Assembly (NCBI GenBank): GCA_951812825.1
Contig: OX638324.1
Location: 2,203,141-2,267,140 of the forward strand
Direction: 5' to 3'
From: an uncultured Dehalococcoidia bacterium
GTDB taxonomy: Bacteria > Chloroflexota > Dehalococcoidia > Lucifugimonadales > GCA-2712585
Length of the DNA stretch: 64,000 nucleotides
The notes beneath the pieces were generated by a model. It worked only from the letters and a program-made list of their open reading frames with translations, was not told where the DNA came from and did not search any database. The position numbers and the translations under genes are program-made. Shown piece after piece: positions 1 through 27,678 of this stretch; the first letter of the stretch is position 1; each line of letters starts with the position of its first letter.

Positions 1-43
1 GGACAAGTGGCGCAGCCTTTTCGACGGTCTCATAGAAAGCTGA
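1..43 (+). CDS. 3' end (partial) of an upstream thioredoxin-fold TlpA/ResA-like paralog
   Basis: Reading from nt 2 gives DKWRSLFDGLIES followed by TGA at 41-43. 8 of 13 residues are identical to the C-terminus KNWRSLLDSLIDG of the next gene. Confidence 0.35.
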   Translation, partial: DKWRSLFDGLIES

Positions 44-226
44 CCGATGACGCAAGCCTCGGACCGGTCTCAAAGGTAGCCTGACAAAGCAACTGCCGAG
101 GCTTTGATGGCTGCCTAAATTACAATTTTTTGGTACTCCTGATTTGCAAAACAACATCGCCAGGGTTGGTTGACAAGACCTTTGATTCGATGAATCCGAC
201 AGGTTGTATGGGGCGTAGATAGGTTT

Positions 227-1210
227 GTGATGTACGTGAATGCCCGCATTTTGGGTATGTTGATGCTGGCAACAGTCTTGTCGGCGGCTGTTGTCCTCGT
301 TGCTTGCGGTGGGGACGTTACAGTTGTAGACACAGACGAGACTGCCCAGCCCACGGCAGCGCCTGTCCCGACTGTAGCGCCACCGACGGCAGCCGCTCCG
401 GCACCGCCACCTGCCGCCGCCGCTACGGTAGCTCCGTCGAGGCCAACTGCGGCCCCGACAACCGCAGAAGCTACACCCGCGCCATCGACACCCACGCAAG
501 CCGCCGCGACAAGGGCTGCGCCCACGGCAGCGCCGACCCAGGCGGCAGCAGCGACGCCCGCGCCATCCACCCCGGCGGCGACGGCTGTGGCAACGCCTGC
601 ACCGGCGACGGCAACTCCCGTGCCGTCCATCGCAACTCCGCCACCAGCGCCGCAGCCCACCCCTGCAGCAGCTCCATCCCCGACGGCTGCTGCTACTCCT
701 GGCCCCACGCCCGAGCCAACGCCGGAACCGACTCCTGAGCCTACCCCCGAGCCCACACCCGAACCTACGGTGGTATCGGTGGAGGTGGGATCAAGGGTGG
801 GACAGCAGGGTCCGGACTTCTCGCTGACAACTGTGGATGGGGAACAGATTACGCTGTCCGCTTTGCGGGGCAGCCCCGTAGTTCTGTACTACTTTGCCAC
901 CTGGTGACCTGCGTGCCGCTCCGAGTTCCGGAGCCTCAAGAGCGTGTACTCAGACTATGAGAGCCAGCTGCACTTCATCGCCATCGGCACCGATGGGGGC
1001 GAGGACGCGGGTCGAATCCGGTCCTTCGCGGAGGATAACGGCTACACCTGGCCGATGATTCCCGCCGACGGCGACGTGCTGAATGGCTACAGAATAACCC
1101 GGCAGTCGACGGCGGTTGTGCTGGACTCGAACGGGATTATTCTTTCCCGTGCGGGCTACGGGAGTTCGAAGAACTGGCGCAGCCTCCTTGATTCCCTGAT
1201 AGATGGCTAG
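227..1210 (+). CDS. Lipoprotein thiol:disulfide oxidoreductase (TlpA/ResA-like thioredoxin fold) with in-frame UGA read as selenocysteine (W-U-P-A-C motif)
   Basis: ORFs 227-907 and 944-1210 are in the same frame, separated only by TGA 905-907 plus 12 sense codons. The joined sequence VVLYYFATW-U-PACRSEFRSL is collinear with the WCxxC thioredoxin-fold motif. The N-terminus has a signal peptide with lipobox LVAC, followed by a long Pro/Ala/Thr linker. Confidence 0.75.
710..769 (+). repeat. Five tandem 12-nt units encoding (PEPT)x5 inside the Pro/Ala/Thr-rich linker
   Basis: The units are ccc gag cca acg / ccg gaa ccg act / cct gag cct acc / ccc gag ccc aca / ccc gaa cct acg. The peptide is the same but synonymous codons differ. 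Confidence 0.9.
918..934 (+). promoter_or_regulatory. Candidate bacterial SECIS hairpin
   Basis: Perfect 6-bp stem GCUCCG / CGGAGC with 5-nt loop AGUUC (contains G-U). It starts 10 nt after the in-frame UGA (905-907). Confidence 0.5.
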
Positions 1211-1432
1211 AGAGGGCCAGGACCAGCAGGCAGGCCCACAAAGCAGCCCTTCACAGCGCTCCTTCGTCCCAGGGAGCTAGTCTAGCTTCTGCTGCTTCTG
1301 TACACTTGGCGCTGTCCGTCGCTGGTATGGTGATGGGCAGAACGCATCGGAGGCTGAAGCGCCCTGGCGTCGCATCCATCTGAAAAGTCGTTAGCCAACC
1401 AGGAATCGCCCGACAGGTGGCGTGCGCTTGCG

Positions 1433-2614
1433 TTGATGTCGCTGGCGACACTGTTGAGCCTGAGCGTCTGGTTCAGCGCCAATGCCATCGCACCCGCGCT
1501 GGAGGCGGAGCGGGGTTATTCCCAGGACGACCTGGCATGGCTCACCATGGCAGTGCAGCTGGGATTTGTGGTGGGGACGCTGATCATCGCCCTCACGAAC
1601 CTGGCGGACCTGATAAACACCCGGACGTTGTTTGCCGTCTGCTCCATCCTCGCGGGCGTGGTGAACGTGGCCATAGTCTTCCTCCCCCAGGACTTTGCTT
1701 ACGCGGTGTTGATGCGGGTGTTGGCAGGGGCCTTTCTTGGGGGCGTGTATCCGCCGGGAATGAAGATTATCGCCGGGTGGTTCCGGTTGGGCCGGGGACT
1801 CGCCATTGGTGCGATGGTGGGAGCGCTGACTCTGGGTTCCGGCTCTCCCCACCTGCTGAGCGCCATCTTCACCGCTGAGTGGGAAACGACGTTGTTCGTG
1901 AGCTCGACGCTGGCCATCGTGTCGGGTGGTGTGGTGTACTTCCTGGTTGCGGATGGGCCTTTCGACGTTCCAGCGCCCAGGTTCAACCCCCGATTCGTCG
2001 TCCGCGTGGTCAAGGACCGGGCATCCCGGCTGGTGCTGTTAGGCTATCTGGGGCACATGTGGGAGCTGTACGCCATGTGGGCGTGGATTCCGACGTACCT
2101 GCTGGCGGTGTTCGGGTCAGGGAGCTTGTTGGGTGACTCGCTGGGGCTGGCAGGGCTGATAGCTTTTCTGGTGTTTCTGGCGGGCGGCATAGGGAGCTTT
2201 GCCGCGGGGTGGTTTGCGGAGAGGTGGGGACGGTGTCTGGTGACCAGCGCGGCGATGCTGATGAGCGGGGGCATTGCCCTGTTCATCGGCTTTGTCGGCG
2301 TGGACTGGGGGTGGCTGATTGTAGTGCTTGCGCTGACGTGGGGAGTGTTTGTGATTGCGGACTCGGCGCAGTTCTCGACGGGGATGACGGAGCTATCCGA
2401 GGAAGCGTACCGGGGCACGGCGTTGACGTTTCAGACGGGGTTGGGGTTCCTGCTGACCATCGTGACCATTAGATTGGTGCCGTTGATGGAGGATGCTGCC
2501 GGTTGGGGTTGGGCGTTTGCGTTCCTTGCCATTGGCCCTGCGGTGGGAATCGCGGCGATGATGAAGCTTCGTGGGCTGCCGGAATCGCGTCAGATGGCGA
2601 TGGGGAAGAGGTGA
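1433..2614 (+). CDS. MFS transporter
   Basis: 393 aa, about 12 hydrophobic segments, typical MFS-like N-terminal half (LAWLTMAVQLGFVVGTL...). Confidence 0.75.
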   Translation: MMSLATLLSLSVWFSANAIAPALEAERGYSQDDLAWLTMAVQLGFVVGTLIIALTNLADLINTRTLFAVCSILAGVVNVAIVFLPQDFAYAVLMRVLAGAFLGGVYPPGMKIIAGWFRLGRGLAIGAMVGALTLGSGSPHLLSAIFTAEWETTLFVSSTLAIVSGGVVYFLVADGPFDVPAPRFNPRFVVRVVKDRASRLVLLGYLGHMWELYAMWAWIPTYLLAVFGSGSLLGDSLGLAGLIAFLVFLAGGIGSFAAGWFAERWGRCLVTSAAMLMSGGIALFIGFVGVDWGWLIVVLALTWGVFVIADSAQFSTGMTELSEEAYRGTALTFQTGLGFLLTIVTIRLVPLMEDAAGWGWAFAFLAIGPAVGIAAMMKLRGLPESRQMAMGKR

Positions 2615-2628
2615 GGGGGCGGCGTAAG

Positions 2629-2898
2629 TTAGGAGGTGGGCTTCGCCGCAGCATTGAGCCGAGCCAGGGCTTTTTCGTAATTGGCCTGCCGACGCATCCA
2701 GAAATCTGCGGTTGACCAACCGATGCGCTCCAATGCATGAGCCACGGAGGGGGTTATTCCACAATCCCCTTTCAACAGCCGTGAAGCCGCGCCGGGGGTA
2801 ACTCCAAGCTCAGCGGCGAAACGCTCCGCGCTCCAACCTTCTGACTCAAGGCTTCGTCGGAGGCTCACCGAAGGATGTGATGGGTTGCGTAAAGTCAT
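2629..2898 (-). CDS. higA: HigA-family antitoxin (XRE-type HTH, VapI/COG3093-like)
   Basis: 89 aa. The HTH segment SAERFAAELGVTPGAASRLLKGDCGITPSVAHALERIGWSTADFWMRRQ is typical of HigA. It lies directly downstream of higB. Confidence 0.8.
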   Translation of the reverse strand: MTLRNPSHPSVSLRRSLESEGWSAERFAAELGVTPGAASRLLKGDCGITPSVAHALERIGWSTADFWMRRQANYEKALARLNAAAKPTS

Positions 2899-2906
2899 GG
2901 CTCCTC

Positions 2907-3179
2907 CTAGTGGTAGTCTTCCAAGTTAACGTCTATGGCTTCGTTGCCCTCGAAGCGAAAGGTTAACCGCCAATTTGCGGACACTCGGACACTCCACGTT
3001 CCGCGCCGGTTTCCAGCAAGTTGGTGCAACCGCAAACCAGGAAGGTTCATGTTCGCTGGTTGTTGGGCTGCATCCAGGTCGTCCAACAAGTCAGAGATGC
3101 GGTCCAACATGTCCGGCGGCAGCCGACGTGCATCGTTATGTTCCCAGAACCGTCTCAGTGCGTTGCTTGTGAATCGCAC
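2907..3179 (-). CDS. higB: HigB-family toxin (plasmid maintenance system killer, RelE/ParE superfamily)
   Basis: 90 aa with the motif LHQLAGNRRGTWSVRVSANWRLTFRFEGNEAIDVNLEDYH, matching the HigB/COG3549 C-terminal signature (..W.I.V..NWR..F.F......Y.DYH). The GTG start overlaps the prfB stop. Confidence 0.8.
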   Translation of the reverse strand: MRFTSNALRRFWEHNDARRLPPDMLDRISDLLDDLDAAQQPANMNLPGLRLHQLAGNRRGTWSVRVSANWRLTFRFEGNEAIDVNLEDYH

Positions 3180-4303
3180 TACTTGTCCATTGTACCATGC
3201 GGCGTCGTATCATCTTTCCCGACGGTGGCAAGGAGGTAGGCTTTCAGGAAGCCGTCAATGTCGCCGTCGAGGACTGAGTTGGCGTCGGACACCTGGTGCT
3301 GGCTGCGGTGGTCTTTGACCATCCGGTAGGGGTGGAGGACGTAGCTTCTTATCTGGCTTCCCCATTCGGCGGAGATTCTTTCGCCGCGAAGCTCCGCCAT
3401 CTCTTTGGCGCGCTCTTCCAGCCGCAGCTGGAGCAGGTGGGCCTTCAGCAGGGTGGTGGCGTACTCCCGGTTCTGGTGCTGGGAGCGCTCCGTCTGGCAG
3501 GAAACGACGAGGCCGGTGGGCAGGTGGGTAAGGCGGACGGCGGAGGCGACTTTCTGGACGTTCTGCCCGCCGGGCCCGCTGGAGCGGAAGAAGTCGATTT
3601 TGAGGTCTTCGGGGCGGATTTCGACTTCGGAGTCCTCCTCGTCAGCGGTGGGCAAGACGACAACCTGGGCGAAGGAGGTGTGGCGGAGGTGATCGCTGTT
3701 GAAGGGGGAGAGGCGGACCAGCCGGTGCACGCCCTTTTCCGCCTTGAGGTAGCCGAAAGCGAGAGGGCCGGAAATCTCGACCGCCGCGCTCTTGATTCCA
3801 CCCCAATCGCCATCGGAGAGGTCCAGCAGTTGGGTCTTGTAGCCGTGGCGCTCGGCCCAGCGGAGGTACATGCGCAGGAGCATCTGGCTCCAGTCCTGGG
3901 AGTCGACGCCGCCCGCGCCGGGCTGGATGGAAAGAATGGCGGGTCGGCGGTCGTAGGGGCCGGAGAGGGTGAGCTCCATCTCCTTCTCCTGCAGGTCAGC
4001 GAAGAAGGAGTCGGATTCCTCGGCCAGCTGCTGGGCAAGGGAGTCGTCGTCCTCCTCCAGGGACATCTCCACCAGTTCCAGTAGGGAAGAGCCCTGCTCG
4101 CGCAGGTCCTTCCACGTCCGCACGGTGTCCTTGAGGTGGGTAAGTCGCCGCATCTGCGACTGGGCCTTGTTGGGGTCCTGCCAGAAGTCCGTGTTGTAGG
4201 ACTCCTTTTCTATGCGCGCAATCTCGGCTTCCTTGGAGGGGACGTCAAAGATGCTCCAGCACCTGGTCGACCTTACGGGTCATCTCCTGGAGCTTATGTC
4301 TTA
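3179..4303 (-). CDS. prfB: Peptide chain release factor 2, requires programmed +1 frameshift
   Basis: ORF0 runs from GTG 4303 (RBS GGAG upstream) and reads MQELRHKLQEMTRKVDQVLEHL, ending at CUU UGA C (4250-4244). Frame +1 continues DVPSKEAEIARIEKESYNTDFWQDPNKAQSQMRRL... into the 324-aa ORF, which contains GGQ (SSGPGGQNVQK). Confidence 0.9.
4244..4257 (-). promoter_or_regulatory. RF2 autoregulatory +1 frameshift site
   Basis: The minus strand reads GGAG CAU CUU UGA C: an SD-like GGAG 3 nt upstream of the slippery CUU followed by in-frame UGA C, as in E. coli prfB. Confidence 0.85.
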
Positions 4304-23417: not shown

Positions 23418-24515
23418 TTGGTACAATTGAATAAATCGTCAGGGAGGACCGCACTAAACTTGGATCCATCCGTCACGAAAACAGCCAAAGCAACCGCTAT
23501 CAGCAACTCTCCGTCGGACATGGACATCCTCGACCGGAAGCTGCTGAACATCATCCAGTCGGGGTTTCCGTTGGTGGACGAGCCTTACGTACAGATAGGC
23601 GAGGAGCTGGGCATCGACGAAGCTGCCGTCCTGGAGCGCATTGCCCGTCTGCGGAAGATCAACGTGGTGCGGCAGATAAGCGCCATCTTCGACACCAGAC
23701 GCCTGGGATACAAGACAACGTTGGTGGCTATGGCGTTTCCGCGTGAAGCACTGCACAACGCTGCACTCGTCATAAACGAGCACCCCGGCGTGAGCCACAA
23801 CTACGCCCGGGAGGGTTCCTATTACAACCTGTGGTTCACTCTGGCAGTAGCGCCCAACGAGGACTTGGAGGAGACGGTGAACGGGATGGCAGCACGTACG
23901 GCGGCACTCCAACACCGCCTGATGCCGACTATCCGGTTCTTCAAGATTGGTGTCAATTTCGACATGGTGAACCGAAAGAGCGCGGCCTTCAACTACAGTC
24001 CCGATGGGTACGACAAGGGTGTGTCTAAGGACTGGAACAAGGCGGTGGCCCTCTCGGAGTTCGACATTCGCGTCATCCGGGAGCTTCAGGAAGACCTGCC
24101 CATGATCTCTCGTCCCTTCGACGCCATGGCAGAACGCTTGGGGCTTTCCAATGACGAGATGTACCGGACAGCCGCCGACTTTCAGAAACGGGGATTCATG
24201 CGCCGATACAGCGCCGTGCTGCATCACCGCAGGGCGGGCTTTCGGGCCAACGCCATGGCCGTCTGGAAGGTCGACGAGGAGCGGGCCGAGGAGGTGGGTC
24301 AGATAATGGCGTCCCATCCCACCGTCACTCATTGCTACCAGCGTCCGACGTTTCCAGACTGGCCCTATACCCACTTCACTATGATCCACGCCACCACTCC
24401 GGAGGGCTGCGAGGAGTCGGTGACGGAGATTGCCGAGGCTACGGGGTTGGACGAGTATCTGCTTCTCTACAGCACCCGGGAGTACAAGAAGACTCGCGTT
24501 CGGTACTTTGTCTGA
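23418..24515 (+). CDS. Fused double AsnC/Lrp-like protein, siroheme decarboxylase type (AhbA-AhbB / NirD-NirL like)
   Basis: Two tandem HTH plus AsnC-type ligand-domain repeats (LDRKLLNIIQSGFPLVDEPY... and FDIRVIRELQEDLPMISRPF...). Adjacent to sirC/hemC/cobA-hemD/hemB. The real start may be ATG 23520. Confidence 0.65.
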   Translation: MVQLNKSSGRTALNLDPSVTKTAKATAISNSPSDMDILDRKLLNIIQSGFPLVDEPYVQIGEELGIDEAAVLERIARLRKINVVRQISAIFDTRRLGYKTTLVAMAFPREALHNAALVINEHPGVSHNYAREGSYYNLWFTLAVAPNEDLEETVNGMAARTAALQHRLMPTIRFFKIGVNFDMVNRKSAAFNYSPDGYDKGVSKDWNKAVALSEFDIRVIRELQEDLPMISRPFDAMAERLGLSNDEMYRTAADFQKRGFMRRYSAVLHHRRAGFRANAMAVWKVDEERAEEVGQIMASHPTVTHCYQRPTFPDWPYTHFTMIHATTPEGCEESVTEIAEATGLDEYLLLYSTREYKKTRVRYFV

Positions 24516-25158
24516 GTCTTCTTTCCCCACCTATTATCCCGTTTTCCTCAGTCTGAAGGGGAGGCGGTGTGTTGTGGTGGGGGGCGGGCCAATTGCCGAG
24601 GGCAAGGTTCGAAATCTGATGAAGCATCCCTGTGAGGTCGTGCTCATCAGCCCCGATGCTACGGATGCGCTGACAGAGTGGGCTGTGGATGGGCGTTTCG
24701 AGTGGAAGCGGCGGGAATATCGTGAAGGTGACCTGAAAGGCGCGTTTCTGGCCATCGGAGCTACGGGAGTCCTGGAGGTGGACAGGCTCATGGCGGAGGA
24801 AGCGGAACGAGAACGGGTGCTGCTTAACGTGGTGGACTACGTGCCCTTATGCATGTTTATCGCGCCGTCTATCGTCGAACGGGGGCCTGTGACGTTTGCC
24901 ATTTCCACGTCGGGGGCGAGCCCCGCCCTGGCCCGCAAGCTGCGGGAGTCCATGCAGGAGAACGAACTGCTTGACTACGCCGAGATTGCCGGGCTGCTGT
25001 CGAAGGCGCGCATGGAGGTGAAGCGGCGCGGATGGAAGATCCCGCCCGACCGGTGGCAGGAGGTCATCGACAGAAAGTTGGTCGAAGCGGTGCGTGAGGG
25101 TCGGGAAGCGGAAGCGTTGAAGGATATCCTGCGAAAGCTGTCCGGCGAGGAATCGTAG
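24508..25158 (+). CDS. sirC: Precorrin-2 dehydrogenase / sirohydrochlorin ferrochelatase (SirC/Met8-like)
   Basis: YPVFLSLKGRRCVVVGGGPIAEGKV Rossmann N-terminus. A TTG start at 24508 is proposed. The ORF-track start at 24430 lies inside the preceding gene. Confidence 0.75.
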   Translation: MSESSFPTYYPVFLSLKGRRCVVVGGGPIAEGKVRNLMKHPCEVVLISPDATDALTEWAVDGRFEWKRREYREGDLKGAFLAIGATGVLEVDRLMAEEAERERVLLNVVDYVPLCMFIAPSIVERGPVTFAISTSGASPALARKLRESMQENELLDYAEIAGLLSKARMEVKRRGWKIPPDRWQEVIDRKLVEAVREGREAEALKDILRKLSGEES

Positions 25159-26075
25159 TGAAAAGGGTGGTGATCGGGACTCGGGGGACGCCGCTGGCGC
25201 TGCTTCAGACGCAAGAAGTTGTGGACAAGCTGCGTGAGAAGCGCCCGGAGGTGGAGTTCGAGGTGAAGGTGCTGCGGACGGCGGGAGACCGGGCTGCGGA
25301 AGCCCCCCTCCGCAGCCTGGGGGTGGGCATATTCGTCAAGGAGATTGAGGAGGCGCTGCTGCGGGGGGAAATCGCCATGGCCGTTCACAGCCACAAGGAC
25401 CTGCCGCCCAAGCTGGCTCCGGGGTTGACCATCGGCGCTGTTACGGAGCGTCTGGACCCACGGGACGCGCTGGTGAATCGTTGGAACGCAAACCTGGAAG
25501 ACCTGCCCAACGGGGCGAGAATCGGCACCAGCAGCCCCAGACGGGCAGCCCAACTCAAGAGATGGGCGCCGCAGGTGGAGGTTCTGCCCGTGCGGGGCAG
25601 CGTGGGCACCCGCATTGAGAAGGCCACGGGGGATGACTACGACGGGGTGGTGCTGGCGGCAGCGGGGATGATCCGGCTGGGCGTTGAGGATGGCGTGTCC
25701 CAGTATTTACCTGCTGATAAGTTCGTGCCCGCGCCGGGCCAGGGCGCGCTGGCGGTAGAGGTACGAACGGATGACGACGCAACTTCCTGGTTGTTGCGGG
25801 GCATCGTCCACGCACCGACGCGCCGGGCAGTGATGGCGGAGATGGCCTTCCTGGAGCGGTTGGGCAGCGGATGCCAGGAGCCATCGGCGGCCTACGCGCG
25901 AGTTGCGGGAGAAACTATGGTGATGCAGGCGTTTCTGGCTTCCACGGATGGTAAGCAGTCCTACTATACGAAGGCGCGGGGTCTGGCCTCGAATCCCCAC
26001 GAACTGGCGATGGAGGCTGTGCAGCAGCTCATCGAAAGAGGCGCCGGCGACCTGGTGCCGGGAAGCGGCCGGTGA
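25158..26075 (+). CDS. hemC: Hydroxymethylbilane synthase (porphobilinogen deaminase)
   Basis: IGTRGTPLALLQT..., HSHKDLP, and a cofactor-Cys region (LGSGCQEP). Confidence 0.9.
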   Translation: MKRVVIGTRGTPLALLQTQEVVDKLREKRPEVEFEVKVLRTAGDRAAEAPLRSLGVGIFVKEIEEALLRGEIAMAVHSHKDLPPKLAPGLTIGAVTERLDPRDALVNRWNANLEDLPNGARIGTSSPRRAAQLKRWAPQVEVLPVRGSVGTRIEKATGDDYDGVVLAAAGMIRLGVEDGVSQYLPADKFVPAPGQGALAVEVRTDDDATSWLLRGIVHAPTRRAVMAEMAFLERLGSGCQEPSAAYARVAGETMVMQAFLASTDGKQSYYTKARGLASNPHELAMEAVQQLIERGAGDLVPGSGR

Positions 26076-26130
26076 ACTCTTTTTCGTTTCACACCCCCTC
26101 TTCGCGTATAACGACTATCGACCCTCCACG

Positions 26131-27678
26131 ATGGAGTTTTCGCCAATGGTAGAGTCCTTGGGTGTGGTGTCGCTGGTGGGGGCCGGCCCCGGAGACCCGG
26201 GGTTAATTACCATCAAAGGCTTGCAGCGTCTACGGGAAGCCGACGTGGTGGCCTATGACCGGCTGGTGGACCGCCGGCTGCTGGAAGAGGCCCGCAAAGA
26301 CGCAGAGCTTATCGACGTGGGGAAGCAGGCGGGCCAGAGCGGCGCGGGACAGAGGAGCATCCATACCGTCCTGATTGACAAAGCCCACGAGGGGAAGCGG
26401 GTGGTGAGGCTCAAAGGGGGAGATCCCTTCGTTTTCGGCAGAGGCGGCGAGGAAGCGCAGGTGCTTGCAATGGCGGGGATACCTTTCGAGGTGGTGCCCG
26501 GCGTCACCGCCGCCGTGGCCGCACCCGCATACGCAGGGATACCCCTCACCCACCGAGAGGCCGCGTCTTCGTTTACCGTGGTCAGCGCCGTCGAGGATGC
26601 AGCAAAAAAGGAGTCCGCAATCCCCTGGGGTACGCTCGCCCGGACGGGAGGAACCCTGGTGGTGATGATGGGCTGGGGGACGCTGCCGAGGGTGGTGGAG
26701 AGGCTGCTGGGGGGAGGTATGCCGTCGTCAATGCCGGCCGCGGTGGTTCAGTGGGGGACGGAACCGTACCAGAAAACAGTGGCGGGGAACCTGGAGAACA
26801 TCGTCGAGAGGGCAAGGGCCGCAGACCTGGGCCCGCCGGTGGTGGCGGTCATCGGGCGAGTGGTGGCGCTGCGGGAAGATATCGGGTGGTACGAGGAGAA
26901 GCCGCTATTCGGCAAGCGGGTGCTGGTCACGCGTTCCAGGACCCAGGCGTCTGTGCTGAGCCGGATGCTCGCCGATGAGGGAGCGGAGGCCATAGAGGTG
27001 CCGACCATAGAGATTGCGCCGCCGGAGGATTTTTCATCCCTAGACGAGGCTTTGCGCGATCTTGTGAGCTTCGGCTGGGTGGTGTTCACCAGCGTGAACG
27101 GCGTGGCGGCGTTCTTCAACAGGCTGAACAAGCTGGGCATGGACGCTCGAGCTCTTGGCAGCAGCCGGATCTGCGCCATCGGGCCGATTACGGCCTCCGC
27201 CCTTGAACAGCGGGGGGTCGTCCCCGACTTTACGCCTCACAGATACACCACGGAGCGGCTGGTGCAGGGGCTGTCGGAGCATGGCGTTGCGGGCGCACGG
27301 GTGCTGATGCCGCGCACGAACATTGCGCCGGAGGACGCGGCGCGGGCGTTGGAGAGCCTGGGTGCGCAGGTGGTCCAGCCCATCGCCTACCGCACGTTGA
27401 CGCCTGCAGGTTCGTCGGAGAAGGCCAGGGAGCTACTGGGCCGTGGTAAAATTGACATAGCGACCTTCACCAGTTCCTCCACAGTTCAGAACCTGATTGA
27501 GCTACTTGATGGAGACTCTTCGGCCTTGAAGGACGTGTTGATAGCCTGCATAGGCCCGGTGACGGCGCTAAAGGCGCGGGAGCTGGGCCTGAAAGTGGAC
27601 GTGGTGGCCCGTCGACACACAGTGGCGGGCCTGGTGAATGCGTTGAAAGACTACCTGGATTCTAATTCGGAGGCTTAA
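26131..27678 (+). CDS. cobA/hemD: Fused uroporphyrinogen-III C-methyltransferase / uroporphyrinogen-III synthase
   Basis: N-terminal [18 protein letters not shown]...[16 protein letters not shown] (SUMT) and C-terminal HemD-like half (KRVLVTRSR...VFTSVNGV). ATG at 26131. Confidence 0.9.

Follow-up and report, generated by a model that had tools for sequence, protein, structure and literature searches.

A predicted selenocysteine-containing lipoprotein with a thioredoxin fold, encoded across an in-frame TGA in an uncultured Dehalococcoidia bacterium

Introduction

Periplasmic formate dehydrogenase-N and the [NiFeSe] hydrogenase are exported selenoproteins. Among proteins with a thioredoxin fold, the PF00578/UxxC "Prx-like thiol:disulfide oxidoreductase" is a high-confidence predicted prokaryotic selenoprotein family (PMC13188914), and the Global Ocean Sampling (GOS) survey recorded 225 members of "Prx-like 1" as well as DsbA-like, DsbG-like and thiol:disulfide interchange selenoproteins (PMC2398784). 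With this family and the exported types of the marine survey at hand, exported thioredoxin-fold selenoproteins are a known kind that has been predicted before. The subject here is a 64-kb stretch of DNA from an uncultured Dehalococcoidia bacterium (contig OX638324.1, positions 2,203,141 to 2,267,140 of the forward strand), referred to as the window, in which the frame from 230 to 1210 on the + strand is broken by a single TGA and is very probably one gene for a selenocysteine (Sec)-containing lipoprotein with a thioredoxin fold. An earlier note on this DNA, made from the sequence alone, had pointed to the same gene and added that Sec proteins exported to the cell envelope are rarely described, a statement that was overstated in view of the DsbA-like, DsbG-like and thiol:disulfide-interchange types in the marine surveys.

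The window protein shares with the Prx-like UxxC selenoproteins an AhpC-TSA/Redoxin thioredoxin fold, predicted Sec in place of the first Cys and a candidate selenocysteine insertion sequence (SECIS) inside the coding region, together with abundant Cys homologs, a common occurrence in marine uncultured bacteria and genes that are usually mis-called as fragments. Different from them, it carries a lipoprotein signal peptide and a linker of ~150 residues, has tandem Sec paralogs and lacks the cis-proline. Membership in the Prx-like family, whose reference sequence is WP_010940744.1, was judged by the PF00578 domain and the UxxC motif.

ResA of Bacillus subtilis and B. anthracis and TlpA of Bradyrhizobium are extracytoplasmic oxidoreductases of cytochrome c/oxidase maturation. 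In common with ResA, the window protein is membrane-tethered and outward-facing (both by prediction); helix 1 likewise begins with the redox motif, and the position of Glu80 is taken by an acidic residue. It differs from ResA and TlpA in the predicted Sec, in a Ser for the cis-proline and in a lipid anchor plus linker instead of a transmembrane helix; moreover, it falls far below the ResA, TlpA and DsbE cutoffs and has no ccdA or resBC neighbours. Etrx1 and Etrx2 of Streptococcus pneumoniae (PMC3914529; PDB 4hqs, 4hqz, 2yp6) are also lipobox-anchored TlpA-like domains occurring as two paralogs, and, as predicted for the window protein, they sit outside the membrane of a cell that has only one. 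A plausible model can be drawn from them, with CcdA passing on the reducing power needed to repair extracellular oxidative damage. Etrx proteins use Cys and have msrAB2 and ccdA nearby, whereas here Sec is predicted and no partner was found in the 64-kb window.

Beyond what was found described, the lipid anchor with its long linker, the tandem Sec paralogs, the subgroup without cis-proline and the imprint of the SECIS on the active-site helix are minor novelties.

Gene layout and reading frame

Two open reading frames (ORFs) were called at this place, 227-907 and 944-1210, which lie in one frame and are linked by the 12 sense codons 908-943; TGA 905-907 is the sole interruption of the frame 230-1210 on the + strand, and the translation joined across it reads ...VVLYYFATW-[TGA]-PACRSEFRSLK.... 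The earlier note had described this arrangement, and it can be read directly from the sequence. The features of the gene are as follows.

230 to 1210, + strand: predicted complete selenoprotein gene, ATG 230 to TAG 1208-1210, 326 codons; GTG 227 is an alternative start
230 to 307, + strand: predicted lipoprotein signal peptide, residues 1-25, with the lipobox L23-V24-A25-C26 at 296-307 and Cys26 at 305-307
308 to 769, + strand: low-complexity linker of ~154 residues in the translation, Pro/Thr/Ala-rich, with (PTPE)n repeats
770 to 1207, + strand: thioredoxin-fold domain of the TlpA/ResA-like (AhpC-TSA/Redoxin) superfamily, residues 181-326 (146 residues)
905 to 916, + strand: redox motif U226-P-A-C229 (TGA CCT GCG TGC), with TGA 905-907 as the predicted Sec codon
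918 to 934, + strand: SECIS-type hairpin GCUCCG/AGUUC/CGGAGC, with the stem 918-923 : 929-934 (6 bp) and the loop AGUUC 924-928

The start Met is supported by the orthologs, which begin at the equivalent Met with MxxxxR(I/S)L.... The linker, which agrees in length and composition with the roughly 150 Pro/Ala/Thr-rich residues put forward earlier, contains a tandem repeat of period 12/36 at 695-765 and differs in length among homologs, the total length of the genomic homologs ranging from 195 to 348 amino acids. In related genomes the public gene calls record the gene as unnamed fragments of 80-88 amino acids, in line with the expectation that such genes are mis-annotated; an exact look-up of the window's own 88-amino-acid C-terminal fragment in the assembly collection returned no record. 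A promoter and terminator scan of window positions 1-1600 gave no sites.

Conservation across the TGA

Homologs were obtained by a scan of one genome per species, which yielded the loci L001-L006, and by a metagenome scan with the motif pattern Y[YF]F[AT]TWxPxC, in which the codon at x was scored. The six loci, all from Dehalococcoidia metagenome-assembled genomes (MAGs) and 39-86% identical, have TGA at the same codon in 6/6 cases with the frame continuing beyond it. With the window and both tandem copies counted, TGA in W-U-P-x-C was found in 11 genes from 7 Dehalococcoidia genomes, and among the 82 metagenome motif hits the codon was TGA in 32 and TGC/TGT in 50. Removal of duplicates left 39 distinct Sec-type genes and 42 distinct Cys-type genes from genomes and metagenomes together. 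The protein identity among the 39 TGA genes spans 27-94%, and they show no further disabling mutations.

The first Cys of WCxxC in the Cys homologs P0006 and P0009 and in ResA aligns onto the window TGA, which bears out the proposal that the TGA falls on the first Cys of a CxxC motif. P0006 is 35% identical to the query over 93% of the query, with its WCPTC aligned to W-U-P-A-C. The same codon is thus TGA in one set of homologs and a Cys codon in the other, a Sec/Cys pair. Conservation extends over the 12 codons that separate the TGA from GTG 944, in which the remainder of the CxxC helix is encoded. The ratio of nonsynonymous to synonymous substitution rates (dN/dS) against L001, L002 and L003 was 0.095-0.133 downstream of the TGA and 0.084-0.121 upstream (dS 0.6-1.2), indicating that the part after the TGA is translated and held under the same constraint as the part before it. 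Constraint on both sides all but excludes a dead gene, a genuine stop at the TGA or a fault of the assembly. In a search of the window for further selenoprotein genes, defined by an in-frame TGA, coding sequence on both sides and a SECIS-like hairpin, only this gene was credible.

A covarying hairpin downstream of the TGA

The hairpin GCUCCG-AGUUC-CGGAGC at 918-934 begins 10 nt past TGA 905-907, exactly where the earlier note had placed it. As an isolated 21-nt element it folds with -10.5 kcal/mol (z = -3.55). The bacterial SECIS (bSECIS) model of PMC13188914 was applied criterion by criterion, and the window hairpin lies within the published model on every one.

Apical loop: model 3-9 nt; window 5 nt (AGUUC)
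Upper stem: model 4-16 bp; window 6 bp
G in the first two loop positions: required by the model; window G at position 2, followed by U
Distance from UGA to loop: model 16-37 nt; window 16 nt
Free energy: model -7.5 kcal/mol or lower; window -10.5 kcal/mol

A hairpin of 17-18 nt stands at a fixed offset (14 nt from the U of UGA) in 39/39 Sec genes and in 0/42 Cys genes. The difference in folding energy between Sec and Cys genes is confounded by their GC content (0.59 vs 0.44), which leaves this positional result unaffected. The hairpins fall into two classes. In class 1 (23 sequences) the stem is a contiguous 7 bp with 95.7% of cells paired, and changes on both sides, that is compensatory changes, were seen in 7/7 stem pairs; the observed covariation was reached by 0/500 shuffles, and in controls with slid partners the pairing fell to 35-54%. 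Class 2 (16 sequences) has the same stem with one bulged nucleotide on the 3' side, 91% pairing and 4 compensated pairs. The loop core is GUU in nearly all Sec genes, with GUC or GGU in a few, and several of the compensatory stem changes are synonymous switches of Arg or Ser codons.

These data support the view that the hairpin behaves as a SECIS. The comparison across homologs is decisive, in that TGA and hairpin are conserved with covariation in 39 genes, and on such sequence evidence it is highly probable that the gene is a genuine selenoprotein gene. The ortholog alignment, which the earlier note had named as a check, gave TGA or a Cys codon at the position, the hairpin together with TGA, and conservation past the TGA. 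Compared with the SECIS of E. coli fdhF/fdnG and the bSECISearch model, the element is likewise a coding-region hairpin just 3' of the UGA with a small loop containing G-U. It differs from the E. coli elements in being an upper stem-loop of only 17-18 nt with a loop of 3-5 nt and an unrelated sequence; in addition, some family members have the 3'-side bulge and no Rfam model detects the element.

The hairpin also appears to leave an imprint on the peptide. Its codons encode R-S-E-F-R-S in the window, and Sec forms nearly always read C-R-(A/S)-E-(F/L)-R at this place, as against C-(A/E)-(K/Q)-D-(L/F)-x in Cys forms. The loop G-U-U consists of the third base of the Glu codon GAG and the UU of a Phe or Leu codon, in the window G925-U926-U927 from GAG and the first two bases of Phe UUC. 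Since an Asp codon is unable to supply the loop G, the RNA signal appears to dictate Glu over Asp, and this choice, apparently set by the SECIS, falls at the position equivalent to Glu80 of ResA.

Protein family, fold and location

With Sec set to Cys, the domain matched AhpC-TSA (PF00578) in Pfam with 68.7 bits against a cutoff of 26 (E = 5.6e-19), followed by Redoxin (3.3e-13) and Thioredoxin_8 (6e-10). The family profile found Bacillus ResA as its best match in PDB (4nmu, 7.8e-23, residues 4-129; 1st9, 3.4e-20) and also matched other TlpA-like proteins, including pneumococcal Etrx1 and Etrx2 (7e-20). An AlphaFold (AF2) model, which is that of the 35% identical Cys homolog P0006 and not of the window protein, had a predicted local distance difference test (pLDDT) score above 90 in the domain and superposed on ResA 1st9 with a template modeling (TM) score of 0.86 and a root-mean-square deviation of 1.8 A, with StoA, DsbF and Etrx1/2 as the next matches. 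From profile and modelled structure, the assignment of the domain to the ResA/TlpA-like thioredoxin fold is established. An acidic residue is conserved at the ResA Glu80 position, E in Sec forms and D in Cys forms.

The description of the protein as ResA/TlpA-like held for the domain and the fold (E = 7.8e-23, TM 0.86) and failed for the equivalog, with 65 against 170 bits and no cis-proline. The equivalog models were rejected one after another: ResA with 65.1 bits against a cutoff of 170, TlpA with 33.7 against 230, DsbE with 29.3 against 359 and StoA with 46.7 against 210. The ResA-like WAxxUGC selenoproteins (NF041054) were rejected as well (28.5 bits against 300), the motif here being W-U-P-x-C. 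Peroxiredoxin proper (AhpC/BCP/Tpx) was a further rejected candidate, with neither PxxxT/SxxC nor the conserved Arg, Ser or Ala at the Arg/cis-Pro position, the motif FATW-U-PAC in the register of CxxC and model scores of 15-21 bits. The site at which the cis-proline is replaced in the window lies at 1084-1110 (residues ~286-294, ..YRITRQSTAVVLD..).

The lipobox LVAC at 296-307, which the earlier note had recognized, is conserved in 11/11 genomic homologs and in 28/32 of the 5'-complete Sec-form genes, and Cys forms have either a lipobox or an N-terminal transmembrane helix, so that the whole family, Sec and Cys forms together, is predicted to face outward. The signal peptide has no twin-arginine motif, which points to the Sec translocon as the predicted route of export, with predicted lipidation at Cys26.

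Decoding of UGA

TGA terminates 11 of the 37 confident ORFs in the window. The gene for release factor 2 (RF2), prfB, lies 2 kb away at 3179-4279 on the - strand and contains a programmed +1 frameshift site of the classic kind, CTT TGA C, at 4244-4250 (-), by which UGA is a genuine stop read by RF2 in this organism. The frameshift site is preceded by GGAG, and the short ORF0 reads ...VDQVLEHL*. A reassignment of UGA in the genetic code is ruled out by the TGA-ended ORFs and the presence of prfB.

Dehalococcoidia MAGs are among the most selenoprotein-rich organisms, with 46-49 genes (PMC13326102). In the metagenome of the sponge Aplysina aerophoba, SelA and SelB co-occur in most symbiont bins and are enriched there (PMC5649159); the same sponge assembly, MKWU, is the source of the TGA-bearing loci L026, L037 and L076.

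Opposing observations and alternative explanations

Several observations weigh against a Sec-containing, ResA/TlpA-like reductase. The 64-kb window and the 88 fetched loci yielded neither selA, selB, selD nor tRNA-Sec in searches with ARAGORN (window and loci), the SelD motif G[C/U]GCK, EF-Tu-type GTPase motifs and Pfam on the 40 window ORFs; the window holds no tRNA genes of any kind. At the RNA level, the closing A-U pair of many homologs is an A.C mismatch in the window, leaving a stem of 6 bp instead of 7, and the wider folds 895-975 and 905-945 have non-significant z-scores of -0.18 and -0.63, so that a SECIS is not supportable by thermodynamics alone. In the GC-rich window, 6.2% of all TGA trinucleotides have a comparable hairpin behind them, and with such a chance rate and unremarkable wider folding the window hairpin, taken alone, is weak evidence. 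Rfam gave no hit over the whole window at gathering thresholds and only noise for 880-1000 at E up to 10; bacterial SECIS elements as short as these evidently escape its models. At the protein level, the structural comparison was made on a Cys homolog, and the window has Ser (..TRQSTAVVLD) where ResA has the cis-proline Pro141. Among the 40 window ORFs, Pfam detected neither ccdA/dsbD nor msr, and no genes of cytochrome c maturation. The absence of CcdA/DsbD, cytochrome c maturation and Msr neighbours, together with that of the cis-proline, makes the reductase assignment weak.

The alternative that survives best keeps the same gene and its decoding by Sec and differs in function, the product being a surface peroxidase of the Prx- or GPx-like type with Sec226 as the peroxidatic and Cys229 as the resolving residue. 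It would accommodate AhpC-TSA as the best Pfam hit, the lack of adjacent cytochrome c maturation or CcdA genes and the glutathione peroxidase (GPx) structures among the fold matches, which appear there at ranks 48 and 50. The replacement by Ser or Ala of the cis-proline typical of Trx/TlpA/ResA-type oxidoreductases would also be in keeping with it: at this position Sec forms have S or A in 35/37 sequences and Pro in 1, Cys forms have T or S in 34/40 and Pro in 4, and Gln precedes it in 31/37 Sec forms, Cys forms mostly having T-T at these two positions. On the other side, the Prx signature is absent (no PxxxT/SxxC, no conserved Arg), the closest relatives in sequence and structure are all reductases (ResA, StoA, DsbF, Etrx), and the acidic equivalent of ResA Glu80 is kept, with E in the Sec and D in the Cys forms. 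A peroxidase is regarded as a serious, though rather unlikely, alternative, the missing cis-proline, the Gln and the lack of maturation-gene neighbours being the reasons to consider it.

A much less probable explanation is that UGA is read as a standard amino acid (Cys, Trp or Gly) by near-cognate suppression or local recoding, the hairpin being a generic stimulator. Downstream structures can stimulate stop-codon read-through in general, and the lack of Sec machinery in the window and the fetched loci would fit this explanation. It leaves several facts unaccounted for: the codon stands where a redox motif has its nucleophilic Cys, as in a classic Sec/Cys pair; the spacing, size and loop G-U of the hairpin fit the SelB-dependent bSECIS model; and the loop G-U-U is kept though it fixes Glu(GAG)-Phe/Leu at a place that is Asp in Cys forms. 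Related Dehalococcoidia rank with the most selenoprotein-rich organisms known, and RF2 is present with UGA used as a stop. Read-through of this kind is accordingly considered very unlikely.

It is more improbable still that TGA 905-907 is a true stop, so that the first part would be a lipoprotein of 225 residues comprising the linker and half of the fold, and 944-1210 a separate small gene or a remnant. Public gene callers annotate exactly such fragments of 80-88 amino acids, TGA is an ordinary stop elsewhere in the window, and the lack of Sec machinery in the window and the fetched loci would agree with a pseudogene or truncated gene. A shortened product of this sort, however, would be without the active site and half of the fold; the identical TGA recurs in 39 genes over the whole identity range without other disabling mutations; dN/dS is ~0.1 after the TGA, equal to that before; and the 12 codons from the TGA to GTG 944 are conserved, completing the CxxC helix. 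A sequencing or assembly error, with TGC or TGT one base away as the true codon, is practically negligible, given that the same TGA occurs in independent assemblies of many projects, including long-read chromosome-level MAGs, that both tandem copies within single genomes carry it, and that it always comes with a hairpin which Cys forms do not have.

Proposed mechanism

For the favoured Sec-containing lipoprotein, the cis signals suggest that the hairpin 918-934 would act as a SECIS and recruit SelB-GTP-Sec-tRNA(Sec), whereby UGA would be read as Sec226 and not as a stop by RF2. As predicted from its sequence, the precursor would be exported via the Sec translocon, lipidated at Cys26 and cut by signal peptidase II, and the domain would then be tethered to the outer face of the cytoplasmic membrane by the extended Pro/Thr/Ala linker of ~150 residues. 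By analogy to the CxxC of ResA, TlpA and Etrx, the pair U226/C229 may cycle between the selenol/thiol and the selenylsulfide. The most likely role would be that of an extracytoplasmic reductant of oxidised envelope proteins or small oxidants, with re-reduction presumably by a membrane electron shuttle of the CcdA/DsbD type encoded elsewhere. Sec would speed the exchange and resist irreversible over-oxidation in an oxic habitat.

Tandem paralogs and genomic neighbourhood

The gene is flanked in the window by the following two features.

1 to 43, + strand: 3' end of the upstream tandem paralog, encoding ...DKWRSLFDGLIES, with the stop TGA 41-43
1433 to 2614, + strand: MFS transporter gene, separated from the selenoprotein gene by a gap of 222 nt, Pfam MFS_1 4.1e-25, given for context only

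Bases 1-43 are the last codons of an upstream copy, so that the window begins inside a tandem pair. A second, upstream copy was found in 4 of the six loci L001-L006, again with TGA in W-U-P-x-C. The upstream paralogs are complete in L002 and L004, where they end with ...WR(S/T)LFDGLIE(S/N)*, that of L001 ends with ...WRNLFDGLIES, and L005 has a complete upstream paralog with another ending, ...DWQALFDDLLES. All of them carry an in-frame TGA (W-U-P-x-C) and a hairpin of their own. Distant members are also paired, at 445 and 1278 in L036 (LXNJ01012361.1) and at 868 and 2236 in L037 (MKWU01000190.1), and in these pairs both genes are of the Sec-containing type with their own hairpins, one with the loop GUU and the other with GUC. 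Paired Sec genes in distant members indicate that the tandem duplication of the Sec form is recurrent or old.

L001-L005 share the gene order paralog A, paralog B, MFS transporter, (higBA), prfB, nfi ... tgt, with the MFS gene directly downstream and 89-94% identical at the amino acid level. Neighbour proteins are mostly 89-97% identical, and the thioredoxin domain 61-86%. The domain of the downstream paralog in L004 (2305-2733) and L005 (6001-6435) is ~61% identical to window 770-1207, and in the flanks of these two loci MFS, prfB and nfi are 93-96% and tgt 86-87% identical. The tandem copies resemble each other in places. This pattern suggests fast evolution of a surface-exposed protein or gene conversion between its paralogs.

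Pfam on the 40 window ORFs gave housekeeping genes only. Between the MFS gene and prfB lie a HigB-like toxin gene at 2907-3179 (-) (Pfam 2.6e-17) and a putative antitoxin at 2629-2898 (-); in tblastn, higB was found only in L001, L002 and L004, and higA in L001-L004 with none in L005. A tetrapyrrole cluster at 23418-27678 (+) encodes an AsnC/NirDL-like siroheme decarboxylase-type protein, a siroheme synthase-like NAD-binding protein, porphobilinogen deaminase and a fused uroporphyrinogen methyltransferase/HemD. The cluster suggests a siroheme-dependent alternative haem pathway, which bears on the question of cytochromes in this organism as possible clients of a ResA-like protein. In another locus, L007 3458-3625, from an uncultured low-GC bacterium (CAYVHK010000033.1), a BCP/PrxQ-like sequence reads ...LYFFPKADTPG-[TGA]-TKQACGF; here the TGA takes the place of the peroxidatic Cys, which probably makes the gene a further selenoprotein, one of the known peroxiredoxin type TxxU; it has no relation to the target organism.

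Significance

A bolder interpretation, which is speculative and rather doubtful as a whole, would take these genes as a distinct clade of TlpA-like surface lipoproteins without cis-proline and with a conserved Gln, in which the switch to Sec and the tandem duplication took place in GC-rich Dehalococcoidia, including sponge-associated ones. Their products would be selenium-dependent extracellular antioxidants or reductases instead of cytochrome-maturation reductases, with a long, possibly glycosylated linker keeping them at a distance from the membrane, and in the active-site helix the peptide R-(A/S)-E-(F/L)-R would be fixed by the minimal 17-nt SECIS. If true, nature would here offer a clear case in which an RNA signal and a catalytic helix have co-evolved within shared nucleotides.

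Current understanding is not overturned by any of these findings. The predicted Sec-containing lipoprotein adds lipid-anchored, linker-extended examples to the thioredoxin-fold selenoproteins with UxxC, and the 39 Sec and 42 Cys genes, with a fully covarying 17-nt SECIS and its visible imprint on the peptide, are a small and convenient collection on which models of the bacterial SECIS and the calling of selenoprotein genes could be refined. As the gene is recorded as two unnamed fragments in the related public genomes, a pair of envelope redox proteins is overlooked in gene inventories of these Dehalococcoidia, which are abundant in the sea and in sponges. The findings suggest that selenium goes, in these monoderm bacteria, into extracytoplasmic redox chemistry.

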